From positions 1-64,000 of IMG/VR virus record IMGVR_UViG_3300018481_000019: DNA of 64,000 nt; one strand, 5' to 3'. This stretch comes from a virus. The translations under genes and the position numbers were made by a program. Positions 2,457 through 61,527 of the stretch are shown here, piece after piece (position 1 is the first letter of the stretch; every line of letters begins with the position of its first letter). The notes beneath the pieces are model-generated. The model made no database searches, was not told where the DNA came from, and saw nothing but the letters and a program-made list of their open reading frames with translations.

Positions 2457-3440
2457 ATGACAACAGACAAGATTCGGACGTGGGACAGAATTCGGTTGGG
2501 CGAGTGGAGCAAGCTCGGTAGACTGACCGAATGGGTTCGTGATCCCGTAGTTGTCTTGGGTGACGAAGTTGCTCAGATGATTCTCGACGGGATGAAGCCC
2601 GAGTTCCCCGTCTGCGCCCCACCGTGGGACGACTTCGTCATTGAGATGCAGCCTTCACCTTGGCCCATCACTGTTTCCAATGGTCCGACCAAGGACGACC
2701 TACGCACCGAATTCGCAACCGGCGTTCTGCTCTCGTTCACCAACATGACCAACCGCTACAAGACGATGCCTCTCTCAGCCGCAGTGCTGGAAGAGGAAGG
2801 CATGAGGTTGATGCGGGCGGTAGATGAATCGGGAGGGTGGGTTCTCGGCTTGGAGATGTTCGCTGATCTTCCCGGTGGAGTGCTCCCGATCTATTGGACG
2901 GCGATGGTGATTGATGCTGGTGGAACGATGGTTCCGGTTGGCTCGGCTTGGTCGTTCATTTCAGATCGCACGGTGACTTCGCCGGGAGTAGATGCGGGAC
3001 GAGAAATTCACGTAGAGGGGGGCAGCGTTCACGTAGATCAGATCGGTGACGTTGTTGACCTTGAAGACCCTGAATGGACGACTATCCAAGCCTTGATGGA
3101 AGCCGGGATGATGGTGGTGTCGATGATTAACTGTTCCAACATCGGATTGGACGACGAGACACCGAGTTACCCACGACCGGAGCGCCGTCGGCTAGAGCGC
3201 AAGGACAAGCCACTGGTCGTTTTCAAAAGACTGCATATCAAGCCTCACAAATCCCATGCCCCTTCTGGCGAGCACGGCGAAGGCGGAGTGGCGGTCCACA
3301 TCGTTCGGGGGCATTTCAAAACCTATACCGCCGAGAAGCCCTTGCTCGGAAAGCACATCGGGACGTACTGGTGGCAGCCAATGTTGAGAGGCACCGAACA
3401 GCGATTCGTTTTGAAAGACTACGAAGTGGATACTGACTAG
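2457..3440 (+). CDS. Hypothetical phage protein with C-terminal H-x-V-R-G-H motif
   Basis: 327-aa ORF; HIVRGHFKTY...YWWQP motif seen in uncharacterised phage proteins; has its own promoter and terminator. Confidence 0.75.
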   Translation: MTTDKIRTWDRIRLGEWSKLGRLTEWVRDPVVVLGDEVAQMILDGMKPEFPVCAPPWDDFVIEMQPSPWPITVSNGPTKDDLRTEFATGVLLSFTNMTNRYKTMPLSAAVLEEEGMRLMRAVDESGGWVLGLEMFADLPGGVLPIYWTAMVIDAGGTMVPVGSAWSFISDRTVTSPGVDAGREIHVEGGSVHVDQIGDVVDLEDPEWTTIQALMEAGMMVVSMINCSNIGLDDETPSYPRPERRRLERKDKPLVVFKRLHIKPHKSHAPSGEHGEGGVAVHIVRGHFKTYTAEKPLLGKHIGTYWWQPMLRGTEQRFVLKDYEVDTD

Positions 3441-3480
3441 CCTCCGATGGGGTGCGAATCCTCACAGGAATGGACCGGCG

Positions 3481-3510
3481 CAAAGCCCTCCGGCGGCGGG
3501 GGGCTTTGTC
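3481..3510 (+). terminator. Intrinsic terminator hairpin
   Basis: CAAAGCCCTCC-loop-GGGGGGCTTTG inverted repeat about 40 nt after the stop of 2457..3440. Confidence 0.7.
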
Positions 3511-3581
3511 GCGTGATATGGTGCTTTCCCTAGACGAGAACTCGACCGCTCGACTGACCGAGAGAGCAGGAGCAAGACGGC

Positions 3582-3935
3582 ATGGCTAGGAAGACGTTCA
3601 AGGGTTACGTCCCGACCGAAGTTCAAACTATCGAACTGGAATCCGCTGATGGGACCAAGTCGATTGAGGTCAAGGGACGACCGGCGGTGGCAGGCTCGGT
3701 GATCTTGGATTTCCTTGCCAAGATCGACACCGACGAACCGGGAACGCTGGCACAAGCCGTCAATGAAATGCTTCATCTCTCCATAGCGGAAGAGTCGTGG
3801 GGTGAGTTCAAGTCTTTCATTGACGACGAGTCGAACGGAATCACGCTCGACATTCTCTCTGAGATTGCCGGGTTCTTCGCGGAGTCCTTCTCGGGAAAAG
3901 CGGGTCTGCCGTCCGAGCCGTCTATGGCTTCCTAG
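3582..3935 (+). CDS. Tail assembly chaperone (gpG-like)
   Basis: Small acidic ORF with RBS, upstream of tape measure; slippery GGGAAAA near its 3' end. Confidence 0.85.
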   Translation: MARKTFKGYVPTEVQTIELESADGTKSIEVKGRPAVAGSVILDFLAKIDTDEPGTLAQAVNEMLHLSIAEESWGEFKSFIDDESNGITLDILSEIAGFFAESFSGKAGLPSEPSMAS

Positions 3936-4198
3936 CAACCAACTGGTCGGCGGCGAGCGGACGGTTCTTCGCTCAGACCGGACGGAGTTTGCGGGACGAG
4001 CGTGCCGATCTTCTCTACGACTACGGCTATTTCTTGCTGACCGAAATGAGCCTTCGCACGGAGGAAGAGGCCAAGGCAATCGCTCGTCTGGAAGACACGA
4101 TGGGCGGGCTGGACTTTGAGGACGCGACCGGGTTCCCCGCTATCGCTCGTCAGTTCGCTCCCGCTGACGGATCAGACATTCCTTTCTACGACGGATAG
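3582..4198 (+). CDS. Tail assembly chaperone, -1 frameshifted long form (gpGT-like)
   Basis: G GGA AAA at 3893-3899; the -1 frame is open from there (SGSAVRAVYGFL...) through the 3989..4198 ORF to TAG 4198. Confidence 0.85.
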
Positions 4199-4204
4199 CC
4201 GCTA

Positions 4205-7200
4205 ATGGCGGAGGTCGTCGGCACCGCCTATGTTCGCATTCGGGCGCTCACCACTGGATTGTCCAAGGACATCAAGGATGGACTTGACTCGGGTATGTCC
4301 GGTATCGACCGAGATGTCGATTCTCAGGTCAATGAAAAGATCACTCAGCGTGTCAAAAAGGGAATGGGCGAAGCTGGTGATGAAGGGGGGAAGAGCTTTA
4401 CCACTCGTCTTCGTGAGGGCATGAAGAAAGGAATGAGTGATACCGACAAGGACACCTCCAAGCGTTTCAAAAAGCTGATAAATAATCTGAAGAAATTCAA
4501 GCTCCCCGGAAGATTCTGGCTCGTAGCTCTTGCCATTCCCGCTCTCGGTGGGGCGTTGAAGCTGGCTGCGTCCTACATCACCACACTGGTCGGGCAGCTT
4601 GGCTACATCGCTACTGCCGCCGTCGGTTTGGGTGGAGCACTGGCGGGAAGCGTTGCTGCAATCGGAGCCGGGATTCTCCCCATCGTTCTCGCATTCAAGG
4701 CCGAGACACCAGCGATGGACGAGTTCACCGAATCAATCCGAGAGCAGGCCGATGCCTGGTTGGAAGTCGGGGTGGCGGCACAAGTTGGGTTGCTCCCGGC
4801 GCTGGATCAAGCGTTTTCAAATCTCGGGGCGCTGATACCGGAAATGACCGAGCTTGCCGGGACAATGGGTCGGATCATCGGTGGCGCGGCTGAAGCCGCC
4901 AGCGAGCTTCTCACTTCTGAATCCGCTCTGGAATCGTGGAGCACTGTGTTCGGGGCATCGGTGGGGGTCTTCCGCTCTCTCATGGACGGCTTGGTCCCAC
5001 TGATCGGGGTGCTTCCGGGGTTCTTTGCCGCTACCGCTCCGCTAGCGATGCAGCTTGCCGAAAGTCTCGGTACGGCGATGGAGAACTTCGCCACCTTTAT
5101 CCAGACCGGGACCGAGAGTGGGGCGCTTGGCGATCAGCTTCAGATTTGGTACGACCGTGCCGAGTCGATAGGCCGGTCGATCTGGAACATCATCGAAGCT
5201 CTGTGGGAGGTCTTCCGAGTTGGGGCTGACGTGGTCGCTCCCCAATTCGCAACCTTGGAAGAGACTACTCAGGGATGGGTCGATTTCCTTCGCTCGGCTG
5301 AAGGGCAAAGCACCCTAGATCGAATTTTTGAAAACGCACTTCCGGTCGCCCAAGAATTCAACGGCTTGATGGGCGACATCATCGACATGATTATCACCCC
5401 TCTTCTCGGGGGCGACACAGAGGGCGTGGTTTCATTCCTTCAGTCTCTTCGCACCGACTGGCTTCCCCTTCTCCAAGACCTAGCAGAAGCACTCGCTGAA
5501 AATCTCGGTCCTAATCTGGAAGAACTTGTTGGCGGGTTCATCGAACTGATTACCGCAATGGCAGAGAGTGGAGCATTAGGAACCTTCACCATGCTTCTCG
5601 GTGATCTGATCGGTGTGCTGGTGGAGCTTTTCCAGCTTCCAGGGTTAGGGGATTTCCTTGGTGTGTTGCTCACCATCCTTCCCATTCTTGGTCTGCTCGC
5701 TGGACCGCTTGGCATCATCATTGGTTTGGCTGAAACGTTGGCCCCTGTGCTCTTTGCTTTGTCTCCCGCAATTCTGTCTGTCGAAGCTGCGCTACTTCCC
5801 ATGATCGGGATAATTCTCGCCGTAATTGCCTTGATCGCTGCAATTATCGTGATCTGGAAAAATTGGGACAAGATCGTCGCCGGGGCGAAGAAGATTTGGG
5901 AGAACTTCACCAAATGGCTCGGGGAGGCATGGGAGACGATCAAGGACTTCTTCGGGGGGATTGGTGATTGGATCGCTGAAGCCTGGACTGCCTTCATTGA
6001 TTTCTTTCAAAATCTCCCTGGTGTGGTCGGTAATGCGCTCGCCACGTTCTTCACTTCGATAGGCAACTTCTTCGCACAGCTTCCAGGCAGAATCGGAACC
6101 TTCCTCTTGGGAGTTGCCACCGCGATCTTGGACTGGATCGGCACCTTGCCGGGGATACTGCTCGGAGCGGCAAGCGCTTTGTGGCAATGGATTCTGGACG
6201 CGGTCCCAATGGTGATTTCCGCCATGACCGATTTTGTCGCCAATGTAATTGGGTTCCTAATCATGTTGCCCATCAACATCGTGACGTGGTTGGTCAAAGC
6301 TCAGATCGCGCTTGGGCAGTGGATTCTCGACGCAATTCCAAAGGTGGTGAAGTGGCTCGGTGATCTGTGGGTCAAGATTTACACATGGATTCTGACCACG
6401 ATCCGCAACCTCATTGTGTGGGGGGTCAAGCTCTTGACTTCCTTTATTCAATGGATCGTGGACGCTCCCGGCAAGTTCATCACTTGGCTTGCGAATGTGT
6501 GGAACGCGATCCTCTCATGGATCGGGACCACGATTTCAAACATCATCAACAAGGGCAAGGAAATTCTCACCGCCTTCATCTCATGGATTGTTGATGCGGC
6601 GAAACAGGCTCCAAGCAAGCTGGCTGAGTTCGCTAATTCAGTTTGGAACTGGATCACCGAGTTCGTCGGTGGACTGCCTGAGCGATTCATCAATGCCATA
6701 ACCAGTTTTCTCAGTTTTGGAAAAGAGCTTTTCAATTCGATCAAAGAGGGAATCACCGGAGCACTTGGTTCCTTTGGAGATTGGGCTTCTCAATTCTTGG
6801 GCAAGATTCGTGACGCGCTGATCGAACATGCGCCGAACTGGTTGAAAGGCCCGATGCGATCCCTCTTTGGGGGTGGGACTCCGGCTCAACCATCAGGAAC
6901 CGCGTCAACGGTATCGACGGCTGCGGCTACGGCTGCGTCCACCATGAGCGCCGGAGTTCGATCTGGGGGTGCCAATCTCTCGGGTGCGGTATCCCCGGTG
7001 ATGTCAGGAGGCGGCGGCGGGGGTATCAGTGGGTTCGCAGCGCCTATGGCCTTTGGCGTACAGAGCTTGGCGCTGGCAGCGGTTCCAACAACAGTGGCGA
7101 TGGGAGTGACCGATCAATTCACCGGACGTGAGTTGAGCGGCATGGCTCCGATCAATCTTGTGGTCACGATTGGTGAGACGGACATCACTGAATTGGTGGA

Positions 7201-7261
7201 CGCACGAATTTCAAGCAATGACAGAGCGACCGCCCAAGCTCTGTGGGTCAAGAGGCGATAA
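4205..7261 (+). CDS. Tape measure protein
   Basis: 1018 aa; N-terminal VGTAYVRIRA, Ala/Gly/Leu-rich, periodic Trp/Phe repeats, follows the chaperone. Confidence 0.93.
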   Translation: MAEVVGTAYVRIRALTTGLSKDIKDGLDSGMSGIDRDVDSQVNEKITQRVKKGMGEAGDEGGKSFTTRLREGMKKGMSDTDKDTSKRFKKLINNLKKFKLPGRFWLVALAIPALGGALKLAASYITTLVGQLGYIATAAVGLGGALAGSVAAIGAGILPIVLAFKAETPAMDEFTESIREQADAWLEVGVAAQVGLLPALDQAFSNLGALIPEMTELAGTMGRIIGGAAEAASELLTSESALESWSTVFGASVGVFRSLMDGLVPLIGVLPGFFAATAPLAMQLAESLGTAMENFATFIQTGTESGALGDQLQIWYDRAESIGRSIWNIIEALWEVFRVGADVVAPQFATLEETTQGWVDFLRSAEGQSTLDRIFENALPVAQEFNGLMGDIIDMIITPLLGGDTEGVVSFLQSLRTDWLPLLQDLAEALAENLGPNLEELVGGFIELITAMAESGALGTFTMLLGDLIGVLVELFQLPGLGDFLGVLLTILPILGLLAGPLGIIIGLAETLAPVLFALSPAILSVEAALLPMIGIILAVIALIAAIIVIWKNWDKIVAGAKKIWENFTKWLGEAWETIKDFFGGIGDWIAEAWTAFIDFFQNLPGVVGNALATFFTSIGNFFAQLPGRIGTFLLGVATAILDWIGTLPGILLGAASALWQWILDAVPMVISAMTDFVANVIGFLIMLPINIVTWLVKAQIALGQWILDAIPKVVKWLGDLWVKIYTWILTTIRNLIVWGVKLLTSFIQWIVDAPGKFITWLANVWNAILSWIGTTISNIINKGKEILTAFISWIVDAAKQAPSKLAEFANSVWNWITEFVGGLPERFINAITSFLSFGKELFNSIKEGITGALGSFGDWASQFLGKIRDALIEHAPNWLKGPMRSLFGGGTPAQPSGTASTVSTAAATAASTMSAGVRSGGANLSGAVSPVMSGGGGGGISGFAAPMAFGVQSLALAAVPTTVAMGVTDQFTGRELSGMAPINLVVTIGETDITELVDARISSNDRATAQALWVKRR

Positions 7262-29698: not shown

Positions 29699-31691
29699 CC
29701 AGCGCACCTTTCCCCGGCCTCCGGCATTGGAGACTTCGCATCTCAGCGAAGCTCCGGTGCTGGACGAACTAGAGCTTGTCGCTTGGCATGACACCGATGC
29801 GGCGACGTGGTCGCGTCGAGTTTTGAAAAACGAGCAGCGCAAGGTTTTGAAGCCAATGCTCGGTGACAGTCCCAAGCTCCCCCAAGGATTGCTCGCCGCA
29901 GGAACCGACTCTCTGGTGATTGGACTAACCCGAGATGGGTTGCTGTGGGAGGACGGGAAGTGGGTCGAGAATGACGAGATGTGGGGAGCCACCACTCCCC
30001 TCTCAGCCGATGATGTGGCATTCGTCGCCCGAGCCTTCACTGAGGGCTGCGATTCGGTGTTGTTCCGGCCCTACTTCCCGTTGGCCTGGATTCCAGAAGA
30101 GCCGGTGGTTGCCGCTGCGCCGGAGAAGCCCGCGGCTCCGTCGCCTTCCAAGCTCCCGCCGGGAGCCAAGCTGGTTGCCATTGTGGACGATCTGGACAAG
30201 AGCGCCGTTTTGGAATTGATTGCTCTCGCGCCGGGGCCGGTACTGCTCCGCCGTCACGACGGCAATTGGTTTGAGGACGACGACTGGCTGATTCCACTGA
30301 GGTCGATTGATCCACCACCCATCGTGGTTTTGGAAAAGGACGTGGGCGACGACGTAATCAAGCAAGTCGATGAATCCACGAAGGGTATGGACTTTGTACC
30401 CAAGGTGGTCAAGTCGAAGAAACTTCGTTCGTCGGCCTTCATGGAATTGGACGACACTCTCGGGCAGATCGAAGAGCAGTTGATTCTCCGAGCCGCCGTC
30501 ACCCCGGAAGGGATCAAGGGAACCGAAAAGCTGAAGCGGTACTGGACCGTGGGCGAAGGTGGACTTTTGAAAATCCGGTGGGGAACACCGGGATCGTGGA
30601 CCCGTTGCCAGCGGCATCTCCGCAAATACATCGGGCCGAGAGCCGCCGGTTACTGCACCAATCTCTGTCAGCGAATGGGCGGGTTCGGGGTGGCTTGCCA
30701 CGTCGGGGTGCGGGGCGATGCCGCTCCACTGATCGGAGTTGGCACCTACACCCCTGGCATGTTCAAGCTGAAGCCAGAGAAGGGTGGCAGGACTCCCTAC
30801 GCCCGAGAGGACCGAAAGACCACCCGGACTCTCAGCGATGCCGAGATAGAGCAGCGTCGGGAAGCGGCACGGAAATCGGCGGAGGCTCGTCGCAAATCAA
30901 CTTCCGAGAGCCGGTCTGAGGCATGGCGGAGTTCGTCCTTGTCTCAGAAGGTGAAAATGGCTGCGGCGATAGAACTCGCTGCCATTCGCCGCAAGGAAGA
31001 ACTGCAATCTCTAATCAGAGGCACCGACGATCCGCTGAAGCGAGCGCAGTATCAGGGCGAGCTTGACGACATCAACAACATGCTCTCAGCCAAGGACGAA
31101 TGGCTCCGCAATCAGAGATACGACGAACTAAAATTGGCGGACAAGCAGATTGATGATGTTCAGAATCAGTTGGATCGGGTGCGGGAGGGTTTCAAAAGGC
31201 AGACCGATTCGCTCACCGAGCGGAGGAACGCTCTTGATCTTCAGATCGAAGCTGCCCGCAATGCGTCCAGCAAGGGCCGGGAATCCGCCCAAGCTGCCAA
31301 TGAGCGGGAGCGAGCGGCAGTCGGTGATCTTCGCTCCGAAGCTGCATCACTGCGAGAGCGGGCGGCGAACACCACTTCTGAGGTTCAGCGAATTCAGTTG
31401 ATGGATCAGGCGCGACGGCTCAGTGACGAAGCCGGGGTGAAGGAAGAGGGCATCAAGCGGTACTCGGATGCCAATGCCCAAACCATCGACAAGCTGGTGG
31501 CGCAGAGACGCGGGATCAGCACCCAGATCAGTGACATCAATTCCCAACGGACAAGGAAGGTCGCTGATATGAATGTCAATTTGAAAAAATTGCGGGACAA
31601 GCGCTCGGGCCTCACCAAGCAGTATCAGGATGCCTCCGAGTACCTACGCCGGAGTCGATCTACCGGAGCACCGGGGCAGTTCTTCATATGA
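29691..31691 (+). CDS. Head-region protein with LKRYW..GEG..KIRWG.PG domain and long coiled coil
   Basis: KLKRYWTVGEGGLLKIRWGTPGSWTRCQRHLRKY...GYC.NL motif recalled from cluster-B-like head maturation proteins; C-terminal coiled coil of about 280 aa. Confidence 0.65.
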   Translation: MTSQRTFPRPPALETSHLSEAPVLDELELVAWHDTDAATWSRRVLKNEQRKVLKPMLGDSPKLPQGLLAAGTDSLVIGLTRDGLLWEDGKWVENDEMWGATTPLSADDVAFVARAFTEGCDSVLFRPYFPLAWIPEEPVVAAAPEKPAAPSPSKLPPGAKLVAIVDDLDKSAVLELIALAPGPVLLRRHDGNWFEDDDWLIPLRSIDPPPIVVLEKDVGDDVIKQVDESTKGMDFVPKVVKSKKLRSSAFMELDDTLGQIEEQLILRAAVTPEGIKGTEKLKRYWTVGEGGLLKIRWGTPGSWTRCQRHLRKYIGPRAAGYCTNLCQRMGGFGVACHVGVRGDAAPLIGVGTYTPGMFKLKPEKGGRTPYAREDRKTTRTLSDAEIEQRREAARKSAEARRKSTSESRSEAWRSSSLSQKVKMAAAIELAAIRRKEELQSLIRGTDDPLKRAQYQGELDDINNMLSAKDEWLRNQRYDELKLADKQIDDVQNQLDRVREGFKRQTDSLTERRNALDLQIEAARNASSKGRESAQAANERERAAVGDLRSEAASLRERAANTTSEVQRIQLMDQARRLSDEAGVKEEGIKRYSDANAQTIDKLVAQRRGISTQISDINSQRTRKVADMNVNLKKLRDKRSGLTKQYQDASEYLRRSRSTGAPGQFFI

Positions 31692-37307: not shown

Positions 37308-38258
37308 ATGAGACGAACCGTCGCATTCCTTACCGCTGTGTTGGTAGTGATGTTGCTCTCTCTGACGGCTACCGCCCATCATCGACCGTGGCACACCCGC
37401 GGCACCACCACCACCACAACTACAACTACCCGGCCCACGACTACAACTACCCGGCCCACAACTACAAGTACCACCCCCGCTGGCGCGTGCGACACCACAC
37501 CCGATGGTGCGCCGAGCGGAGCATCCGTTCGTGGTCCCGCCACTATCACGACGAGCCAGACCATTTCCAATGTCGTCTTCGACGGCACTCACAGCGATGA
37601 TTTAGTTCGGGTCTATGGCTCTCATGTGATTTTCAATCATGTGACATTCAGAGGAACCGGCACCGGCTCCACCGGACATACGGTGGAAGTGAAGCGGGGA
37701 GGCTCAGTCGAGATTCGTAATTCGCTTTGGAATGGTCAGCCCTCAGAAGACTCCATTCAGTTTGGCGGTCCCAATGGCGATCAGCACGCCGGTCACTCGG
37801 TAATTCGGTGCAGCACGATTGGCGGCGCACCAGACGAAGATCACGCTGATTTCAAAGTGAGCCAACCGGGAGCGGTCGTGGACTTCATCGACAACCGTTT
37901 TGCCACGGTGCCGACGGGGGGAAGGACAATTCAAAACGACGGAAGCGTCGGTAGGCAGAACTTCATCCGCAACACCGGACTGGCAAACGTGCTTTTGGAA
38001 AACACCGTCGCTGGCTCTTTGGTCGGCAACAGCATTGGTCAGTTGTACGTCTACAACGCAAGGGATTGGCTGATTCAAGGGAACACCATCACCCGATTGC
38101 AGAACGGTGTAGCCGATGGACGCAACCCGAGCGGCATCTTCTACCTAGCGAACACGATCAGTCAGTTCGTGTTTTATGGCGGGTCGTGTTGGGCGACCGG
38201 GAACTCGTTGGCCTTATCCCAATGCGCGGTCGGCTCCCCTGGTTGGTATCCGAGATAA
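37308..38258 (+). CDS. Secreted Thr-linker / beta-helix protein (moron-like)
   Basis: Signal peptide MRRTVAFLTAVLVVMLLSLTATA, poly-Thr linker, parallel beta-helix-like repeats. Confidence 0.75.
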   Translation: MRRTVAFLTAVLVVMLLSLTATAHHRPWHTRGTTTTTTTTTRPTTTTTRPTTTSTTPAGACDTTPDGAPSGASVRGPATITTSQTISNVVFDGTHSDDLVRVYGSHVIFNHVTFRGTGTGSTGHTVEVKRGGSVEIRNSLWNGQPSEDSIQFGGPNGDQHAGHSVIRCSTIGGAPDEDHADFKVSQPGAVVDFIDNRFATVPTGGRTIQNDGSVGRQNFIRNTGLANVLLENTVAGSLVGNSIGQLYVYNARDWLIQGNTITRLQNGVADGRNPSGIFYLANTISQFVFYGGSCWATGNSLALSQCAVGSPGWYPR

Positions 38259-38670: not shown

Positions 38671-38910
38671 TCATTCTTGGAACCATCCTTCGTTCCTCTG
38701 AACGTCCTTCGCCCTTTCGATTTGCTCTTGCCGCCAGCGCCATTCGTGGGGGTTGAGGGGGCCGCGGGGGTCGGGGTCGTCAATGTCTCCGATGAATTGG
38801 GGTTGTCTCTGTCTCTTGGCGTAGTCAATTTTCTCCCACAGTTGAATCATTATGACGAGCAGTCCGCCCAGGATGCAGGCTATGGCGATGAACCACAAAA
38901 AGTCAGTCAT
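38671..38910 (-). CDS. Small membrane protein
   Basis: GGAGG RBS, N-terminal TM helix. Confidence 0.55.
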   Translation of the reverse strand: MTDFLWFIAIACILGGLLVIMIQLWEKIDYAKRQRQPQFIGDIDDPDPRGPLNPHEWRWRQEQIERAKDVQRNEGWFQE

Positions 38911-39068
38911 GTTTCCTCCGGTACTGCCGCCTTGTCGAGCCATTCCACCAGCTTGTCCAAATCAACCGACACAGAACCTACGCCTCCGGCAAGCTCGCGT
39001 AGCGAGTTTTGCAAGTCGGTGAGACTTATCCACTTCTCTTGGTGGAAGTTGACGTAGCGGAGTCTCAT
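38907..39068 (-). CDS. Hypothetical protein (53 aa)
   Basis: ATGA overlaps on both sides; MRLRYVNFHQEKWISLTDL... Confidence 0.5.
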   Translation of the reverse strand: MRLRYVNFHQEKWISLTDLQNSLRELAGGVGSVSVDLDKLVEWLDKAAVPEET

Positions 39069-41917: not shown

Positions 41918-41945
41918 ATTATAGCCCGCTGAAAATCTAACGCAA
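41918..41945 (-). promoter_or_regulatory. Early promoter TTGCGT-N16-TATAAT
   Basis: Member of the repeated promoter family. Confidence 0.8.
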
Positions 41946-42332
41946 ATCCAAATCCGAATTATTTGGAGAAATTTCGTGGGCGATCAATTGGCCCATCGCG
42001 TCCAGATCGTTCCAAGGAAGGTTTTTGAATTCCAGCACCATCGCCGTTGGGGGTTCCAACTCAGCCACGATGAACTTGGCTCCGTCGGAATATCCAAGGT
42101 CGATCAGCCAGCGCATCTCGGAATCGGATTCGGCCTCCATGAAGGACCGGCGTTCAACCGAGAGGTAGATCGGAAACAGAGAACTCTCGGTCACGTAGGC
42201 GTGGTAGCCCAAGTGAACGAGAGTTCTCGCGAGTATGTACGCCTTGGCGGACGGGTCTTTCAAATCACCGATGGAGAGCCGGTAGACCATATCTGCCGCG
42301 GTAACGGCATTACTTGGCGGTCTTGCTGCCAT
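41937..42332 (-). CDS. Hypothetical protein (start uncertain)
   Basis: Open frame with normal composition. Confidence 0.55.
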   Translation of the reverse strand: MAARPPSNAVTAADMVYRLSIGDLKDPSAKAYILARTLVHLGYHAYVTESSLFPIYLSVERRSFMEAESDSEMRWLIDLGYSDGAKFIVAELEPPTAMVLEFKNLPWNDLDAMGQLIAHEISPNNSDLDLR

Positions 42333-42612
42333 TGGTCTTGTAAGCACGCGGCTCGTATCCGATGGAAACGAGTGCTTGCTGCACCCAACCGATTGAGTAG
42401 CCGGTTATCTCGGCAATCTCTTTCAGGGTGGCTCCGTTGTTCTTGGCGGTCATTGCCGCCTTGACGAGACGGCCCTTGGCGGAATCGACATCTCTTTCCA
42501 GCTTCGTGATGTTCGTTCGCTCACTCTTCAGCTTGGCGAATGCGTTCTCACGTCTGCCCTCTCGGGCTAGCTCGGCCTTGGTCTTGGTTTCAGTGGTCAT
42601 GTAGGTGTTCAC
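42310..42612 (-). CDS. HTH DNA-binding protein
   Basis: A...GATLKEIAEITGYSIGWVQQ. Confidence 0.75.
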   Translation of the reverse strand: MNTYMTTETKTKAELAREGRRENAFAKLKSERTNITKLERDVDSAKGRLVKAAMTAKNNGATLKEIAEITGYSIGWVQQALVSIGYEPRAYKTNGSKTAK

Positions 42613-45250: not shown

Positions 45251-45411
45251 TTGGTGGTGTTCGCAATGAGCATTTTCCAAAACTCCAAGGCCGCTGCCTC
45301 AGCGATCTTCACCGAGAACCCGGCATCAATCATTTTGGCCTTGAATCCCGCCACCAACGCGACGACTCCCTCTGTCGCATCTGCCATTTGTGCAAAACTG
45401 TCAGTGTCCAT
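45247..45411 (-). CDS. Hypothetical protein
   Basis: MDTDSFAQMADA...DAGFS..IAE. Confidence 0.55.
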   Translation of the reverse strand: MDTDSFAQMADATEGVVALVAGFKAKMIDAGFSVKIAEAAALEFWKMLIANTTK

Positions 45412-48861: not shown

Positions 48862-49165
48862 TCAGGCTCTTGACAAGCAGACTCTTGATGTAGCCAACTC
48901 CCCAACCCAAGTTACGCCGACAATTGGAGCACTGGCGAAATCCACGATCAACAAGTTCGCCCCTGGCGGCGAGATGGGGTTCGCCCCAAGTGGGGTCGTC
49001 GTAACCGGGGGTGTGATCGGAGATAGTCGAAAATCCGACCTGCCAGCAAAGCGGCTTGTCACCATCGACGGTGTCGTGCCAGATCAGACGATGTCCGTAG
49101 ACCAGCACTTGCTCTTCTCGCCAGTTCTTCCAACCGAAAGTGACGAAACTCGGGTCCACGCTCAC
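48851..49165 (-). CDS. Hypothetical protein with C...CxxC
   Basis: GTGA overlap; H...LC...CSNC. Confidence 0.5.
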   Translation of the reverse strand: MSVDPSFVTFGWKNWREEQVLVYGHRLIWHDTVDGDKPLCWQVGFSTISDHTPGYDDPTWGEPHLAARGELVDRGFRQCSNCRRNLGWGVGYIKSLLVKSLIDA

Positions 49166-49821
49166 AGCAACCTACTTTCTACCTTGACCGATATCTGCCA
49201 TGCCACACCGTTTTCGTCCACTGCAATCCGAGCGCCCTCTTGGGTTCGGGCGACAATTTTCAATCCGGTCCCTTCCTCCAAAGCCGAGTCGGGAATCGCG
49301 TTGGCGAGTTCGGGATTGATCGCTGGCGAGTCCTTGGGATTCGGGTTGTAGTAATAGACCCCTGGTGAAAGTCGCTCGACGTGAGGGTCGTCACGAACAA
49401 GGGCGACCAAGCTGGAACTGATCTGCTTCCGAGTCAGCGTCATTTCAAATTGCTCGACCAGCTTGTTTGAAATGGCCTCAGTGGTGATGGGCTTGCCTTC
49501 GTTCCGAAGTATGGAAACGACCTTGCCCTTCTGACCCGAGACTCGGTTGGTCACTGCGGTCACGTCTCCGGTATCGGATTCCAAATTGTCGGGCCGATAG
49601 GCGTACTCGCCGGGAGCAATCCGAATGATGCCGGTGTTCTCTCGGTCGCCCCGCAATTGAGAGAGGGTCGCTGAAATGCTGGTCGGCGGAGTCGTCTCTA
49701 GTTGCGGCTTCGCTTGCAAGTCCCGCATCGTCACGCCTTCTGGCGCGGCCTCTTCCACCAACCGCTTGATGGTGGTGACAAGAGACTCGCCTTGCCGCTG
49801 CTCTCGGTCTAGGTCTGTCAC
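49162..49821 (-). CDS. Protein with two tandem winged-helix-like domains
   Basis: SISATLSQL...RIAPGEY and QISSSLVAL...RLSPGVY internal duplication. Confidence 0.65.
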   Translation of the reverse strand: MTDLDREQRQGESLVTTIKRLVEEAAPEGVTMRDLQAKPQLETTPPTSISATLSQLRGDRENTGIIRIAPGEYAYRPDNLESDTGDVTAVTNRVSGQKGKVVSILRNEGKPITTEAISNKLVEQFEMTLTRKQISSSLVALVRDDPHVERLSPGVYYYNPNPKDSPAINPELANAIPDSALEEGTGLKIVARTQEGARIAVDENGVAWQISVKVESRLL

Positions 49822-55596: not shown

Positions 55597-55639
55597 AGGC
55601 GGACCTCCTGTCCTGTCTGTGTCTTGTCTGTCACTCAGA

Positions 55640-55667: not shown

Positions 55668-55669
55668 AC

Positions 55670-56146
55670 TCAGGACGCTACTTTCCAAAAGTCCGGTGGG
55701 ACTGCGAGCCTGCGTGGAGCAAGCGCTCCCCGATGGGCATTCCAGAGGATTGCCCCGATTCGTCCGTTGCCGTCAGCGAACGGATGAATCTCTTGGAACC
55801 GCTTGTACCACTCGTCGGCGCTCAGGGTGTCCCAAGCATCGACCAGCAATTCGATCTGCCGGGGAACCTCCCGCCAGGAAACTCCCCTTTCAAATCTGTC
55901 ACCGACCACGACATCGCGATTGCGATAGCCGATGGGGTCATTGGTGCGTGGCTCCACGATGCTCGCCAGTTTTTGAATCTTCTCGACTGTGGGCGGGAGC
56001 ACAACATCGCTCCACTTCTCCCAATCAATGAACTCGTCGTAGGCGTAGCCCCAACCGGCGACCAACCAGGCGACCGACATCTCGCCGCTCTTCTGGCGCT
56101 CGCACTCGGCAGCGGCCCATTCGACAACGTCTTTCCATGCGTTCAT
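55670..56146 (-). CDS. Fic-domain protein
   Basis: GYR...V.VG; FQEIHPFADGNGRIG. Confidence 0.9.
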   Translation of the reverse strand: MNAWKDVVEWAAAECERQKSGEMSVAWLVAGWGYAYDEFIDWEKWSDVVLPPTVEKIQKLASIVEPRTNDPIGYRNRDVVVGDRFERGVSWREVPRQIELLVDAWDTLSADEWYKRFQEIHPFADGNGRIGAILWNAHRGALAPRRLAVPPDFWKVAS

Positions 56147-56364
56147 GTTTTCTCCCTTACGATTTGCCACGCCTCATATTCGATGGTGATTGGTTCGTCG
56201 GCGGCGAGAAAGTGCCGCATCAAATCTCGGGCGGGTCGATGATCGACCGCTATCCAAACCTTCGTGGCCCCGAGCAGATCATCTTCGATGCCCCGGTTGA
56301 TTTCAAAAGTCCAGATGGTGCCGTGATCTTCGTACTTCCCGGTGAGTTCTCCGGCGAATGTCAT
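56143..56364 (-). CDS. Hypothetical protein
   Basis: ATGA overlap. Confidence 0.55.
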   Translation of the reverse strand: MTFAGELTGKYEDHGTIWTFEINRGIEDDLLGATKVWIAVDHRPARDLMRHFLAADEPITIEYEAWQIVREKT

Positions 56365-56366
56365 GG

Positions 56367-56753
56367 TCACAATCCCTCCCGATCTGCGTATTCGACTTCC
56401 TCTTGGGTGTGCTCCAAGTCCCACGGACCCCAATGCCCGTAGGTGACGCAATTCAAAAACGCTTCCTGCGGTTCGTAGATCACGACTTCGTCCGGGTCGA
56501 TTTTCCCGAGCTTGTAATACATGACCTTGGGCATGGTGACTTCCCTGCCGTTCGATGGGTCGATCACAACCGGGATTGAAAAGCCGTCAATCTCTTCTGC
56601 GGTTTCGACCCAGGCGTGGATGAACCTCATGCCTTCGATGTCACCCTGCCCTGTCGGGTAGCCGTGGACGATCTGATAGCTGTCCTGCTCTTCCTTGGGC
56701 TTGTCCATGACGAACTTCACCGCTGCGTCGAAGCAGTCGCCGCCGGTAGCCAT
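56367..56753 (-). CDS. Hypothetical protein, possible papain/transglutaminase-like fold
   Basis: GDCF..A...VHG...HAWVE...IDP: Cys-His-acid arrangement. Confidence 0.55.
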   Translation of the reverse strand: MATGGDCFDAAVKFVMDKPKEEQDSYQIVHGYPTGQGDIEGMRFIHAWVETAEEIDGFSIPVVIDPSNGREVTMPKVMYYKLGKIDPDEVVIYEPQEAFLNCVTYGHWGPWDLEHTQEEVEYADREGL

Positions 56754-56940
56754 TACCTCAGTCCCATTTCGTACAAGCACGATTCGCACGTCGGCAAGTC
56801 GGTGACTTCGGCGTACCGTGGGTCGGCAACTTCGTTGCATGGTGAGTAGCCGTAGGCCACATCGCTCACTGCGTTGCGCTCGCAATACTCAACGGGCGGC
56901 AGCTTCCAGACAACACCAGGGCTGCGCCAAGGTGGGGTGC

Positions 56941-57099
56941 TCATTTGCCCTGCAATTCGTAGGTGACGACCAGCAAAGCAGCCATAGCTTCCCGAGCCTC
57001 ACGGACCTTGCCGGTCTTGGTGCATTCGGTCCACTGGCGAACCAGGGCTTCCCGCTTGGTTCTGAGTTCCATTATCTGTCTTGATGTCATGGGCATCAT
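56941..57099 (-). CDS. Hypothetical protein (52 aa, not in ORF track)
   Basis: Directly downstream of a promoter; MMPMTSRQIMELRTKREAL... Confidence 0.5.
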   Translation of the reverse strand: MMPMTSRQIMELRTKREALVRQWTECTKTGKVREAREAMAALLVVTYELQGK

Positions 57100-57126
57100 C
57101 CCTTTCTCTTGTCTGTGTCACTCACA

Positions 57127-57154
57127 ATTATAGCGTCGTGAAATTAGATTGCAA
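57127..57154 (-). promoter_or_regulatory. Early promoter TTGCAA-N16-TATAAT
   Basis: Repeated promoter family. Confidence 0.85.
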
Positions 57155-57382
57155 ATCCTTCGGGGGCGGACGGCGGCTTCTCGCCAGTCTCCGGGTGCTC
57201 TTTGGTGATGGTTCCCCAAGGGACGTAGAACGATTCCTCCGTTCCGTCGAGCACGACCAGTTTGTTGCGGCTCCCCTGTGTCGCGGTGATGAAGGTGGCG
57301 GAAGCGGTCACGCCCTCATAAGTGACGAATATCCGGTCGCCCCTCCTGCACGTCGGGCCGAACTCAGGAATGGTGGTGGTGG

Positions 57383-57565
57383 TCAAGCGAACGCTCCGGC
57401 AGGGGCGAACGTGGGGAACGACCGGCTCGCGGCGGAGGCAACGGCCCGGACACAAGAGACGCAGACGGTGACGACTGCTCCCCATCCGGTAGATGTTCGT
57501 GCGGTTTTGACTGTCTCAGTCGGTGGTTTGGGAGTGGCGCACTCGGCGCAAGTGGCTTCGCTCAT
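57383..57565 (-). CDS. Small Zn-finger protein
   Basis: CAEC...CVSC; GAAAGG RBS. Confidence 0.55.
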   Translation of the reverse strand: MSEATCAECATPKPPTETVKTARTSTGWGAVVTVCVSCVRAVASAASRSFPTFAPAGAFA

Positions 57566-57597
57566 GGCGGTCCTTTCTCTTGGGGGGAACACTCAGA

Positions 57598-57625
57598 ATT
57601 ATAGCTTGGTGTAATTGCTATGCAA
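57598..57625 (-). promoter_or_regulatory. Early promoter TTGCAT-N16-TATAAT
   Basis: Repeated promoter family. Confidence 0.85.
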
Positions 57626-57675
57626 TTCTGATTAGTGGAAAATTTCCCACTCTTGGTAAGGACCGTTTTGAGAAC

Positions 57676-57720
57676 GAAGAAACCCCCCGGAGGTTGGCAG
57701 ACCAGGCGGGGGGTTTCTTC
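57676..57720. terminator. Hairpin terminator
   Basis: GAAGAAACCCCCCG...CGGGGGGTTTCTTC, 14-bp inverted repeat just after the stop of 57738..58034. Confidence 0.8.
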
Positions 57721-57737
57721 CGTCGTGCGTCGAGAGG

Positions 57738-58034
57738 TTAGCCGGTTTCGGCGGGCTTGCGCTCTCGGAGTGCTTCGATGTGTGAGATTGCGATTTGCTC
57801 GGCAGTGACTTGCTTCACTTCTCCGTAGCGATAGAGCCACGCCTCCTGAGCCGCTTCCTTCCACTCTTCCTTGTAGATGGATAGAATGTCGAGCAGATGG
57901 TCAAGGTCGAGTGCCGCCGTCTCTCGGTACTTGTCACGGAAGTAGTTCTGTTCCTCCCACCGACCCTTACCAAACCGTCTGTCGAAGCAATCCTTCGCCA
58001 GCGCTTCGATCAGCTTTTCACGAAGCTCGCTCAT
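57738..58034 (-). CDS. Hypothetical protein
   Basis: Normal composition, followed by a terminator. Confidence 0.6.
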   Translation of the reverse strand: MSELREKLIEALAKDCFDRRFGKGRWEEQNYFRDKYRETAALDLDHLLDILSIYKEEWKEAAQEAWLYRYGEVKQVTAEQIAISHIEALRERKPAETG

Positions 58035-58386
58035 AGTGCATCTCCATCTCGGTCAAGTCGATTTCGTGGTCGTGACCCTGGCAGACCCAACGGTCGTGGG
58101 TGCCGCCGTCCTCAGTGATTTTCCAGCATGTGTTGTTGTCTTCGCTCATGTCTTCTCTCTTTCTTTTTGAAAACCGCCCACTATGGGAATGGGCGTTCCG
58201 TCTCTGGATTTGACCCGAGACAAGTGATACTCCCCGCACTGGTCACAGACGTAGCTATGGAGTAGCCACCCATGTTCCTCCTGTTTTCGGAGGCGGGCCT
58301 GTTCCGCCATGTGCTCGGTGGGGTAGTGATTCTTGGTTCTGCATGACTGCGTTCTGAATCTTGGCGGTATCAAGAGCAACCTCATT

Positions 58387-58674
58387 TCAGAGAACTTTCA
58401 TTTCGTGAGTCAACACAATCGGTCGGTATGTCACTTTGTAGTGGGTGTGGTGTTCTCGGCAGTCTCCATCGCAAAGTCTTTCGACTGACTTGTAAGCGAG
58501 ATTCCCGTCCGATGCAAGGTTGAGAACCATTGCGTAATTCTGAGCATGGTCTTCGTCAAAGAACTCAGCGATGGGACATTCGCCCTCCGTGGTGTTGTGC
58601 TCGGACATCGGCTTGTCGTGAAGCGTCACGACCCACCCACCGATCAGATCATTGGATTGGGCGTAGTAGGTCAC
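58387..58674 (-). CDS. Hypothetical protein
   Basis: NDLIGGW...IAEF pattern. Confidence 0.55.
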   Translation of the reverse strand: MTYYAQSNDLIGGWVVTLHDKPMSEHNTTEGECPIAEFFDEDHAQNYAMVLNLASDGNLAYKSVERLCDGDCREHHTHYKVTYRPIVLTHEMKVL

Positions 58675-58837
58675 TCTTCCTCCAAGGTGAGCTTCACCGT
58701 CTCACCGGGAACGAGAGGGCGCATCACCGCCACCGGAACCCCGGCGTGATAGATGATGAACGACTCCCCGGCTTTGAGCCGGTCCATGTATTCCTTGCCC
58801 TTGCGTGAGAGCAGGGACCAATTGGCGTAGGTGAGGT

Positions 58838-59197
58838 TCATTCCTCTTCACCGCCTCCGCCGGTCACGGCATTGATCGCGTCGATCATGGCATCAACCCG
58901 AGCCACATCATCGGCATTGAGAGTTTGCAGGGAAGTGAATATCGGCATCCCGTTGATTCCTCTCGGACCCGCCTTGTGCATCCATTCAAAAATCATGCCG
59001 TGCGACCCGCCCTCTTCGGTCGGCTCCAAGAGCTTGACCAAGTCGTCAATGGCGGGCTTGTCCATGAAGGCGAGCGGCATGAACACCATCGTCATTAGAT
59101 TCGGGTCAGGAAGCATCCGGTCACAGAACACCGAGCCGGACATCAGGCCGAGAGCGATGTCACGGATTGACTTGTCGCTTTTTGAAACGTAGGTCAT
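58838..59197 (-). CDS. Conserved hypothetical phage protein
   Basis: VFMPL...AGPR.INGMP.F.S pattern. Confidence 0.65.
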   Translation of the reverse strand: MTYVSKSDKSIRDIALGLMSGSVFCDRMLPDPNLMTMVFMPLAFMDKPAIDDLVKLLEPTEEGGSHGMIFEWMHKAGPRGINGMPIFTSLQTLNADDVARVDAMIDAINAVTGGGGEEE

Positions 59198-59400
59198 TCG
59201 TGCCACGCTTCCTTGATCTTGCTCCAAGCGTTCTCCATCGCTCGTCCGACCGCCGTGTCACGGCGACTCGGCGCTGTGATTTGCTCGTAGGTGTCGGTCT
59301 GCCAATGGCTGATCGCTTCACCAAGAGCTTTGAACTGTGGCTCGGTCAGAGTGATGGTGATGGTCCGCTGCTTGCGTCGAGTCGGTGGTGCAATTTTCAT
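59194..59400 (-). CDS. Hypothetical protein
   Basis: ATGA overlaps. Confidence 0.55.
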   Translation of the reverse strand: MKIAPPTRRKQRTITITLTEPQFKALGEAISHWQTDTYEQITAPSRRDTAVGRAMENAWSKIKEAWHE

Positions 59401-59672
59401 GGCACGACCCTGTCGAATTCCTCTGGCAGTTCCAGAACCAAGTATCTCTTTAGAGCGTTTCTCTTGTTCGGCTCATAGTCGAGCACGTCCCATTCCCAAC
59501 CGCCGTGCTCGTCCTTGAAGTCGATGGTCTTCTCCCCGACGACTTGACCGCCAAGGCTCTCGGCCACGGCGACGATGTCGAAGATGGTGGTGGGTCGTCC
59601 GTAGAACATGGCATCGGCTTCGACACCGGCTCGCAGTTCGTGGATAGTTTTGACTGTGTCTTTCGGTTTCAT
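59397..59672 (-). CDS. Hypothetical protein
   Basis: AGAGG RBS, ATGA overlap. Confidence 0.55.
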   Translation of the reverse strand: MKPKDTVKTIHELRAGVEADAMFYGRPTTIFDIVAVAESLGGQVVGEKTIDFKDEHGGWEWDVLDYEPNKRNALKRYLVLELPEEFDRVVP

Positions 59673-59760
59673 AGGTGCCTCTCTTTGATTAGGTATCTCA
59701 ATCCGGCTCCGAGATGTGCGAGCAGATGCCACACACCACGGACCAAGTCTCGGAGGAATT

Positions 59761-61527
59761 TCATTTTGAAAGCATCTCCATCAAGTCCTTGTCTCGCAAG
59801 ACTTCCTGCGCTCGTTTTTCCTTCGATGAAAGTCGGGCCAACTGGCCTTCCTCCACCGTATCTTCGACCAAGTAGTCAACGTACCGAACGGTTTCGTGCT
59901 TCTCGGAGCCGATTCGATGCACCCGATCTTCGGCTTGGGTGTGGACCGTGTAACTCCACGACCGGACCAGGCGGACCATCGTGCTCGCTGCGGTGAGCGT
60001 GATTCCCTCACCCCCGGCTCGGGTCAGGAGGATGAACGGGACTTCGCCTTTTTGAAAGGACTCCATCGCCGCTTCCCGATCTTCCCCGGTGACATCGCCG
60101 GTAATCATGGTGTAGCCGATCTTGGCCTTGGTCATGGCTCCGGCGGCTAGCTCCAAGAGCTTGCGGGAGTCCGAGAACACGACGACTTGCTGCCCGTCAT
60201 AATCCCCGTCGAGCACGTCTTCCATGAACGAATCGACCTTCGGTGAGTTCTTCGCGTCCATGTGGAAGACACCCTCTGTGTCGATGTGACCGGCGGCGTT
60301 GGCGATCTGCACCAAGCGACCGGCCTTTTCCAAAACCGAGCCGACGGCAATCACGTCTTCCCCGTCCAGTGTCGATGCGAACATTCGCTTTTCGACATCG
60401 TCGTACAGCTTGCGGTGCTTCGCCGGGAGCGTGACCCATCTCGTCTCGTAAATTTTCTCGGGAAGGAAGGGCAGTGCCGCTTCCTTGGTGATACGGCGAG
60501 AGCGAGCGTCAAGGTTCCCAAAGAACTCGTCGGCCCGTCCGGGGTTGATGCCAAGGATTTCCCGAGCGCCCCAATAGTTGAACGTGACATTGCAGTACCG
60601 CTCTATGAATCCGGTCTTCACCGGGTACTCGTCGGGTGCGATGAAGCGGAGCAGGGACCAAAGGTCTTCCGGCGTGTCCTGAATCGGGGTGCCGGTCAGA
60701 CCGATGATGTTGTCCGCTTCCTTGGCGAGATGCCACAGCGCCCGAGTCCGCTTCGACTTCGGGTTCTTGATGCGGTGAGCTTCGTCAGCGATCAGAGTTT
60801 TGAAAGCGATCTTCTGCAACGGGCCGTCGGTCTTCTCGGCCTCCGTCAGCTTCACCGTCGGGAAGGGAGCGTGACGGCTCCGCAAGCGGGCGGTGTCATA
60901 AGAGATGATGTAGAAATCGGCAATCTCAGCGAGCAGGGCATCGACCACCATCGGGCTTCCTTCCACGATCTGCACGGTGGCACCGGGGAAGAATCCTTTG
61001 ATTTCAGTACGCCATGTTCGGAGCATGGACTTGGGAGCCACGATCAGAACCGGGAAGATGTCTTTGCCGTCCGTGGCGGACTCCCCGGCGAGAGCGGACA
61101 GGCCAGCTAGAGCAGTACGGGACTTGCCCGCTCCCGTCTCGTCAAAGAACAAGTAGCGACCGGCGACTCGGATTAGCTCGGCACCAACCTTCTGATACGG
61201 GTACAACTCAGCGAATCCAGGTAGTGTCAAATCTTCGATGTGTGCGGGCGGTTCCTCAATGAGACTGCGAAGTGCGCGGAGATACGCCTTAGTTGCGCCG
61301 GTTTTCTTGCCCCATGCGGTGAGCACGTCACCAAGAACAAGGTCAGCGCCGAACTCTTCACGGAGCGCAAGTGCGGAGGGCCATGAGAGCGGGACGGTCC
61401 AGACTCGGTTGTCGGCATCCCACTTGGCACCGGGAACAGCCTTGACACTTTCTTTGAGTCTGAAATCCGTTTCTACGACGATGCGACCGGGATGGGAGTC
61501 TCGGTAGATTTCAGCTTTGGTCTTCAT
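59761..61527 (-). CDS. SNF2/SF2 DNA helicase
   Basis: DETGAGKS, DEAH, LTGTP, GEGITLT, QAEDRVHRIG. Confidence 0.95.
   Translation of the reverse strand: MKTKAEIYRDSHPGRIVVETDFRLKESVKAVPGAKWDADNRVWTVPLSWPSALALREEFGADLVLGDVLTAWGKKTGATKAYLRALRSLIEEPPAHIEDLTLPGFAELYPYQKVGAELIRVAGRYLFFDETGAGKSRTALAGLSALAGESATDGKDIFPVLIVAPKSMLRTWRTEIKGFFPGATVQIVEGSPMVVDALLAEIADFYIISYDTARLRSRHAPFPTVKLTEAEKTDGPLQKIAFKTLIADEAHRIKNPKSKRTRALWHLAKEADNIIGLTGTPIQDTPEDLWSLLRFIAPDEYPVKTGFIERYCNVTFNYWGAREILGINPGRADEFFGNLDARSRRITKEAALPFLPEKIYETRWVTLPAKHRKLYDDVEKRMFASTLDGEDVIAVGSVLEKAGRLVQIANAAGHIDTEGVFHMDAKNSPKVDSFMEDVLDGDYDGQQVVVFSDSRKLLELAAGAMTKAKIGYTMITGDVTGEDREAAMESFQKGEVPFILLTRAGGEGITLTAASTMVRLVRSWSYTVHTQAEDRVHRIGSEKHETVRYVDYLVEDTVEEGQLARLSSKEKRAQEVLRDKDLMEMLSK

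Follow-up and report, generated by a model that had tools for sequence, protein, structure and literature searches.

TTTSAAA, a short symmetric word held at high density in the genomes of one lineage of uncultured phages

Chi and DNA uptake sequences are dense, evenly spread short words that are kept because a machine reads them wherever they occur; they are asymmetric and strand-biased, and they belong to the genome of a cell. Other systems, such as p6 of phage phi29, Rok and Lsr2, coat or organise whole genomes through low-information preferences for A/T-rich or bendable sequences, Rok by means of a winged helix. Here we analyse the word TTTSAAA (S = G or C) in the IMG/VR virus record IMGVR_UViG_3300018481_000019, a genome of 93,817 bp that is rated complete and has a G+C content of 57% (hereafter G000); the window covers positions 1 to 64,000 of this record. 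TTTSAAA resembles Chi and the uptake sequences in its density and even spread, but differs from them in being symmetric and free of strand bias. To our knowledge, none of p6, Rok and Lsr2 uses TTTSAAA. No published description of the word was found, and searching the literature for it yielded nothing of relevance.

Closer parallels are offered by HIP1 (GCGATCGC) and the alternate highly iterated palindromes of cyanobacteria; for HIP1, an origin in methylation-dependent mismatch repair has been proposed (PMC4390886). As for HIP1, a short palindrome is present far above expectation in both coding and non-coding DNA, and its positions turn over while its density is maintained. The HIP words are, however, G+C-rich 8-mers of cellular genomes that co-occur with a cognate methyltransferase, whereas TTTSAAA is a palindrome of odd length, rich in A/T and degenerate at its centre, and the G+C-rich phage that carries it has no recognisable methyltransferase. 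In cluster A mycobacteriophages, many copies of a short protein-binding word, the stoperator, are likewise dispersed over an actinophage genome, including the inside of genes; stoperators are asymmetric, transcription-oriented words of 13-14 bp, present at ~20-35 copies per genome and read by the immunity repressor of a temperate phage (PMC9283540, PMC6550527). In contrast, TTTSAAA is a symmetric word of 7-9 bp with ~100 copies, its central base shows no bias on the sense strand of genes (42 C vs 40 G), and searches of Pfam and PHROGs, in which most small proteins of this phage matched no family, detected no integrase or repressor. Other palindromes over-represented in phages (AGTACT in jumbo coliphages, GGCGCC, GCGGCCGC and ACGGCCGT) share with TTTSAAA an excess that is independent of reading frame and found in a lineage. 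They differ from TTTSAAA, which is odd-length, has an S centre and is A/T-rich in a G+C-rich genome purging most palindromes.

The 114 genes called in this analysis cover 88% of the genome. Counts were compared with dinucleotide shuffles, with synonymous-codon shuffles performed genome-wide or within each gene, and with Markov chains of constrained codon swaps; non-coding copies (20 TTTSAAA, of which 5 extend to TTTTSAAAA) were held fixed in the codon shuffles. A preliminary description of the window had reported at least 16 copies of TTTTSAAAA and five of TTTTSSAAAA, with about 0.1 perfect copies expected from a zero-order estimate. Exactly 16 and five copies were recovered at the reported positions, for dinucleotide-shuffle means of 0.58 (maximum of 4) and 0.22, respectively, and recomputing the zero-order expectation gave the similar value of 0.16. 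In the whole record TTTTSAAAA is found 23 times, and the reversed word AAAASTTTT is missing altogether. Synonymous-codon shuffling, which the preliminary description had proposed as the decisive comparison, left 5.6 ± 0.7 copies, including the 5 fixed ones, and the observed count lies outside the shuffled range.

The excess therefore stands, but its unit is not the 9-mer: the enriched word is the 7-mer TTTSAAA, of which TTTTSAAAA is the strongest form. TTTSAAA is present in 102 copies in the genome, 63 of them in the window, vs 28 after genome-wide codon shuffling (20 of the 28 being the fixed non-coding copies). Shuffling codons within each gene left 33 copies of TTTSAAA and 6.3 of TTTTSAAAA, i.e. 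the same excess, which rules out gene-specific codon usage as its cause. On the sense strand of genes alone, 84 copies were observed for 8.1 expected by codon shuffling (~10-fold). Non-coding DNA, which accounts for 12.5% of the genome, harbors 20 copies vs ~0.6 expected from base composition (~30-fold), a density 1.6-fold higher than that of coding DNA. The reversed word AAASTTT is depleted (2 in the genome vs 6.4 expected, with a single window copy at 62720), and TTTAAA is absent from the genome. When all 7- to 8-mers were ranked against codon-shuffled genomes, words of the TTTSAAA family headed the over-represented list. The density of TTTSAAA amounts to ~1 per kb and that of TTTTSAAAA to 245 per Mb. 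One palindrome in many-fold excess in genic and intergenic DNA, as in genomes of the HIP1 type, is thus found in G000 and also in G013, a 41-kb relative.

The signal resides in the DNA and not in the encoded peptides, as initially proposed. Genic copies occur in all three frames (28, 17 and 39) and on both gene strands, in agreement with the different codon phases noted in the preliminary description, and the AT-rich codons described there as atypical are indeed minority codons (TTT for 27% of Phe, AAA for 27% of Lys and TCA for 12% of Ser). TTTSAAA is used at 28 of the 40 protein-compatible positions of the type F-(Q/E)-(codon starting with A), at 39 of the 102 of the type xxT-(F/L)-K and at 17 of the 40 of the type xTT-S-(K/N). 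A peptide cause was rejected since compatible tripeptides are barely more frequent than in amino-acid shuffles (40 vs 30, ~1.3-fold). The codon shuffles, the lack of sense bias, the higher non-coding density and the retention of orthologous sites next to differing residues (see below) all point to the DNA level. Analysis of spacing and periodicity, another check that had been suggested, showed that the copies are spread evenly (coefficient of variation of the spacing of 0.85; variance-to-mean ratio of 0.70 in 5-kb bins), with neither regular spacing nor helical phasing. Thus, the pressure that keeps TTTSAAA at high density, and in part at fixed positions, is strong enough to outweigh codon preference.

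Symmetrised profiles of the 102 sites of G000 and of the 43 sites of G013 contain no information beyond four bases from the centre. At the fourth position T is preferred (0.50) and G is disfavoured, the preferred form being (T/A)TTTSAAA(A/T). One-off variants with an outer A or T are enriched 3-4-fold in a mirror-symmetric manner (ATTSAAA, 3.3-fold; TTTSAAT, 4.2-fold), and those with an outer C or G are mostly at or below expectation (0.47-fold for CTTSAAA and 0.63-fold for GTTSAAA), with the exception of TTTSAAC (2.0-fold); inner one-off variants gave mixed results on small numbers. The form with two S is enriched about equally, almost solely as TTTCCAAA/TTTGGAAA (25 vs 3.1), and no enrichment was found for spacers of three or more S between the T and A tracts. 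In every enriched form, a run of pyrimidines rich in T gives way to purines rich in A, with a single CA/TG step, and pyrimidine-purine (Y4R4) junctions in general are not enriched (0.92-fold).

Several other origins of such a word were discarded. The uninformative flanks exclude that it is part of a longer repeat, and flanks that are not complementary exclude hairpin or cruciform centres, with a single exception at genome position 71,562. This only site with complementary flanks is a perfect, terminator-like intergenic hairpin outside the window (genome ~71,545-71,576), GGTGAGCGGGT-TTTGAAA-ACCCGCTCACC, which carries the word at its tip. A sigma-70-type promoter with TTGAAA as its -35 element was also rejected, TANNNT being located 16-19 bp downstream of only 1 of 154 TTGAAA copies (background of 0.5%). 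Finally, TTSAA, which we take to be a target of Type II restriction-modification, is enriched (284 vs 216), the opposite of the depletion expected for such a target.

The phage has no nucleotide match among 50,697 phage records. For the terminase and helicase, matches with 36-45% identity come from phages of Gordonia, Microbacterium and Arthrobacter and from phage DSL-LC01; the best terminase matches are actinophage proteins with 45% identity. Close relatives, with terminases or portals 74-92% identical, are G013 and 11 contigs of 5-13 kb from several metagenomes. All of them carry the signature: they contain 0.3-1.25 TTTSAAA per kb and, taken together, a single AAASTTT, and their TA odds are close to 0.4. 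In G013, 43 copies of TTTSAAA were found vs 7.1 after codon shuffling of that genome. Relatives whose terminase is at most 53% identical lack the excess, among them Gordonia phage GMA2 (103 kb; 9 TTTSAAA vs 4 reversed words) and DSL-LC01 (129 kb; 11 vs 12), and relatives L054-L056 have 0-1 TTTSAAA in 15-19 kb. The word is confined to one phage lineage, irrespective of which restriction sites that lineage avoids. Concerning gene content, GMA2 encodes two methylases, WhiB and tRNAs, and its primase differs from that of G000. Contigs of 76-96 kb encode close homologues; a polymerase scan for longer relatives found none, and a scan of metagenomes gave only fragments of less than 3 kb.

Conservation of the sites, also put forward in the preliminary description as a check, was assessed in protein-guided codon alignments of G000 with one long relative, G013 (28 kb aligned); the comparison with the short, closer contigs was underpowered. 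Ten of the 28 G000 sites are kept in G013, as are 10 of 32 in the reverse direction. The number expected from other 7-mers, stratified by overlapped codons that keep the amino acid, is 1.8 (z = 7), and none of 200,000 simulations reached 10. Five of the ten kept sites persist despite a differing flanking amino acid. Thus, TTTSAAA is maintained at orthologous positions within the lineage.

G000 avoids many other words. Of the 64 six-base palindromes, 39 are absent from the 93.8 kb (e.g. GTCGAC, GCCGGC, CGATCG, ATCGAT, TGATCA, CTCGAG, GGATCC and CTGCAG), and CGCG, GGCC and TTAA are strongly depleted. Asymmetric words are also nearly absent or depleted relative to Markov expectations, including CCTCG (2 vs 285), GATGGC (0 vs 78), CTCCTC (0 vs 69), GGGGAC (0 vs 60), AAGAAG (4 vs 71) and TTGAAG (13 vs 84). 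TA dinucleotides have odds of 0.42, and A/T runs are reduced to 0.57 (5 bases), 0.41 (6 bases) and 0.33 (7 bases) of the codon-shuffle expectation; through both depletions the phage could evade a silencer or nuclease that seeks A/T. AGGAG/CTCCT, which resembles a Shine-Dalgarno sequence, is also scarce (56 vs 189), as are CCTCC and CCTC; selection against ribosome-binding sites inside genes may here be combined with the avoidance of restriction.

TTTSAAA could be a by-product, either of the avoidance of restriction sites, TA and A/T runs or of demands made by codons, peptides, promoters or hairpins. Some forcing does exist: TTCGAA and TTCGAG are absent, and therefore Phe-Glu must begin with TTT; the avoidance of TTTAAA and TTAAG likewise forces TTC before AAA. 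The constrained chains, in which codon swaps never raised the count of any avoided word, quantified this effect with 380 words plus TA (chain 1) or 837 constraints including A/T runs (chain 2). Both relaxed to ~38-41 TTTSAAA (20 fixed) and ~6 TTTTSAAAA (5 fixed). Avoidance thus raises the coding expectation from ~8 to ~18-21, for 82-84 coding copies observed, indicating that most of the excess is not due to avoidance. In addition, G013 avoids a partly different set of words, since it tolerates palindromes absent from G000 (ATCGAT, 25 copies; AGGCCT, 17; ACCGGT, 11), yet shows the same TTTSAAA excess. Together with the lack of promoter partners, of complementary flanks and of a sufficient surplus of tripeptides, these results largely refute the by-product explanation, which we consider extremely improbable. 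An A/T-rich word is kept in a G+C-rich genome that otherwise purges palindromes, TA steps and A/T runs, and the pressure maintaining it must therefore be strong and specific.

Some factor probably reads TTTSAAA on DNA. The preliminary description had proposed dispersed sites for binding or bending by a protein; this remains the best reading, with one weak candidate among the phage proteins. We favour, tentatively, the possibility that TTTSAAA is a dyad recognition word of 7-9 bp for a DNA-binding factor acting genome-wide, preferably a phage-encoded architectural or protective protein. The factor would bind the compact, dyad-symmetric (T/A)TTTSAAA(A/T) on double-stranded phage DNA, most likely as a dimer or via two equivalent domains, and would act along the whole chromosome, at ~1 site per kb, rather than at particular genes. 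Its role would probably be architectural or protective, i.e. coating, compacting or marking phage DNA as the phage's own, and selection for the word would prevail over codon preference wherever the protein sequence permits. We infer that a protein is involved, which protein it may be and what its binding might achieve. The reader is most likely encoded by the phage clade, in which the product of gene 49162-49821, a putative winged-helix protein, is the only recognisable candidate.

Candidates were sought among the phage proteins with Pfam (~100 of the 114 proteins, the other ~14 being mostly products of structural or very small genes) and with PHROGs (ten proteins). Most small proteins belong to no family. 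The ParB-like protein named in the preliminary description did not withstand a six-frame search of the whole record with PF02195 (ParB_N), which gave no match at E ≤ 0.001 while controls matched. The helix-turn-helix (HTH) candidates fared better in part: no Pfam HTH was found among the small proteins at E ≤ 0.01, but one protein, encoded by 49162-49821, models as a winged helix. This protein has a weak match to the Pfam family HARE-HTH (E = 5e-4). Its AlphaFold2 model, built from 8 sequences, has a mean predicted local distance difference test score of 62, rising to ~80 over residues 100-160, and gave generic winged-helix matches with Z of 8-10, including the globular domain of histone H1, BlaI/MecI, Fur and Rok. 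Like Rok, the candidate may therefore use a winged helix, a match that is generic (Z ~9) and tied with those to many other winged helices. No homologue was found in the 50,697 phage records; the protein is present in G013 (41% identity) and in several metagenomic contigs of 92-96 kb, and it is absent from GMA2. In all, seven early proteins occur in both G000 and G013 but not in GMA2, this one among them; other clade-specific early proteins are encoded at 38671-38943, 41937-42347, 42310-42612 and 58838-59227. The closest pair of TTTSAAA copies in the genome, 23 bp apart (49443-49472), lies inside this gene. The predicted fold and this distribution hint that the protein could be the reader, the link to the word being circumstantial.

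Several observations weigh against such a DNA-binding factor. Within the Pfam and PHROG searches, no methyltransferase, ParB, Lsr2, HU, WhiB, integrase, repressor or clear HTH was found; the candidate has a generic winged-helix fold and shares its restriction to the clade with several other small proteins. Both the one-S and the two-S form are enriched, although a rigid dimeric site does not usually allow two spacings. Between G000 and G013, two thirds of the sites are lineage-specific: density is maintained with turnover of sites, and the kept sites may reflect either retention or repeated re-creation under a persistent bias. Finally, the word may depend on a factor of the host or be a signature copied from it.

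An origin in the host may take several forms: TTTSAAA could be an identity or protection signal of the host (Chi-like, for an end-processing nuclease), a site for a host nucleoid protein or an adopted oligonucleotide signature of the host. No phage-encoded reader is evident, and the word reads alike from both ends of the DNA, as would be fitting for a linear genome of a phage. However, Chi and uptake words are asymmetric and orientation-biased, whereas TTTSAAA is symmetric (53 TTTCAAA and 49 TTTGAAA on the plus strand), and distant relatives infecting Actinobacteria lack the excess. The terminase matches on bacterial contigs are at most 50% identical and belong to distant prophages of non-actinobacterial genomes; five bacterial genomes with related prophage terminases contain at most 46 TTTTSAAAA per Mb, vs 245 per Mb here. 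We know of no bacterium with such a word, and we regard a host origin as unlikely. An enzyme-driven palindrome comparable to HIP1 appears to us equally unlikely. According to this scheme, a host or phage enzyme, through methyltransferase-linked or other short-patch repair or conversion, would turn near-cognates into TTTSAAA without any functional reading. The high saturation of compatible positions, the turnover of sites between relatives, the stronger non-coding enrichment and the depletion of CTTSAAA and GTTSAAA are in its favour. Against it, there is no general depletion of one-off variants, since TCTSAAA, TTGSAAA and ATTSAAA reach or exceed expectation; the phage has no methyltransferase or repair nuclease recognisable by Pfam or PHROG searches; and the enrichment is limited to one phage clade. 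Moreover, short-patch repair of the Vsr type converts towards G:C, as do the other known short-patch systems, whereas creating TTTSAAA needs changes towards A:T.

Two further explanations were considered. In the more plausible of them, which we nevertheless consider rather improbable, the word answers a mechanical need: a T-tract and an A-tract joined by a flexible CA/TG step would form a soft hinge free of TA, and the phage would require a certain density of hinges for bending, packaging or unwinding in DNA stripped of TA and of A/T runs. That all enriched forms (TTTCAAA, TTTGAAA, TTTCCAAA and TTTGGAAA) pass from a pyrimidine run to a purine run through a single CA/TG step, that both spacings are enriched and that TA and A/T runs of 5-7 bp are depleted to the extent given above is consistent with this proposal. 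A physical need would, however, predict neither so sharp a word nor the conservation of orthologous sites, and Y4R4 junctions are not in excess and helical phasing is absent. A role in priming or initiation by the phage PrimPol-helicase, with the word spread over both strands and concentrated near an origin, is very unlikely. Five copies of TTTSAAA do lie within 913 bp of a repeat-rich, non-coding region of 1.7 kb beside the PrimPol-helicase operon (genome 80.4-82.1 kb), and the spacing of one per kb may resemble the length of Okazaki fragments; but known primase sites comprise 3-5 nucleotides, and we estimate that the five-copy cluster is not significant after correction for the number of windows.

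The remaining features of the genome are less closely connected with the word. The replication module is ordinary, with PolA, a PrimPol-helicase, an SNF2 helicase, a clamp, a RecB-like nuclease and a Sak4-like ATPase. No tRNA was found in the genome, an Rfam search of the genome gave zero matches, and two possible lysis genes just downstream of the structural module had no match in the phage database. Outside the window, the 1.7-kb region at 80,360-82,140 has no convincing gene and separates divergent operons, one of which encodes the PrimPol-helicase. It contains repeats (CCTCAACGGAGC three times at a spacing of 65-70 bp, TGAATTCTTCTGCAAGG twice and TTGCAGGGTAATTCCTG twice), three GAAC-N4-GTTC boxes resembling Gram-positive LexA sites and the five TTTSAAA copies, and it may be an origin or a control region. 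A second over-represented word is CCGAGC/GCTCGG (223 vs 95 in codon shuffles), with its extensions CCCGAGC (86 vs 28) and ACCGGAGCA (13 vs 1.1). The final 84 bp of the record (93,734-93,817) exactly repeat window positions 234-317, and relatives align at both record ends over ~290 bp; the record, although labelled linear, therefore seems to wrap around, through a terminal repeat or circular permutation. The positions of the copies in the window are listed in Table 1.

Table 1. Positions of TTTSAAA, of its extended and two-S forms, and of the gene for the candidate reader in the window.
Feature	Position	Strand	Remarks
TTTSAAA starts (63 in total)	68, 1536, 2275, 3221, 3314, 3410, 4465, 4815, 5327, 6005, 6534, 7595, 7714, 8350, 10656, 10748
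TTTSAAA starts (continued)	11913, 12174, 16078, 18131, 18321, 19463, 22037, 23060, 23420, 25493, 28346, 28737, 28970, 29822, 30566, 31190
TTTSAAA starts (continued)	31580, 31706, 32005, 35248, 36399, 37850, 39729, 41042, 42258, 44476, 45021, 45170, 46211, 46467, 47171, 48167
TTTSAAA starts (end)	49443, 49466, 50374, 51819, 52888, 53752, 54887, 55888, 56301, 58166, 59181, 59765, 60051, 60799, 63262
TTTSSAAA starts (18 in total)	6716, 12593, 15116, 20062, 20759, 27257, 28936, 30329, 31831, 34832, 36643, 37994, 43087, 45274, 45953, 55682, 60327, 63084
TTTTCAAAA	3220..3228		in gene 2457-3440, frame V-F-K
TTTTGAAAA	5326..5334		frame F-E-N; 7-mer kept in relative L053
TTTTCAAAA	16077..16085
TTTTCAAAA	18130..18138		frame F-S-K
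TTTTCAAAA	18320..18328		within the overlap of two genes
TTTTGAAAA	19462..19470
TTTTGAAAA	23419..23427		7-mer conserved at the orthologous position of G013
TTTTCAAAA	25492..25500		7-mer conserved in G013
TTTTGAAAA	29821..29829		7-mer conserved in G013
TTTTGAAAA	30565..30573
TTTTGAAAA	31705..31713		7-mer conserved in G013 despite a differing flanking residue
TTTTCAAAA	35247..35255		7-mer conserved in G013
TTTTCAAAA	45020..45028		intergenic
TTTTCAAAA	46210..46218		in the clamp gene, minus strand
TTTTCAAAA	51818..51826
TTTTGAAAA	58165..58173		intergenic
TTTTGGAAAA (two-S form)	6715..6724
TTTTGGAAAA (two-S form)	30328..30337
TTTTGGAAAA (two-S form)	37993..38002
TTTTCCAAAA (two-S form)	45273..45282
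TTTTCCAAAA (two-S form)	60326..60335
Candidate reader (putative), 219 amino acids, winged-helix domain at residues ~90-165	49162..49821	-	proposed from fold and distribution

Short words that are dense and under selection imply the existence of a machine reading them. The reader of TTTSAAA would be either a new DNA-organising or self-marking protein of phages or a new system of the host whose demands phages have to meet. A more specific proposal, which we regard as doubtful, is that the clade possesses its own chromosome-marking system, in which a clade-specific protein, possibly that encoded by 49162-49821, would read TTTSAAA about every kb and coat, compact or shield the phage DNA. If so, the marking would set phage DNA apart from host DNA in a phage that has no DNA modification and deletes restriction sites, and the virus would bear a self label written in its own sequence; systems of this kind have not been described so far. 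TTTSAAA is also a simple marker by which this lineage of uncultured phages, and possibly its host, can be recognised in metagenomic data.

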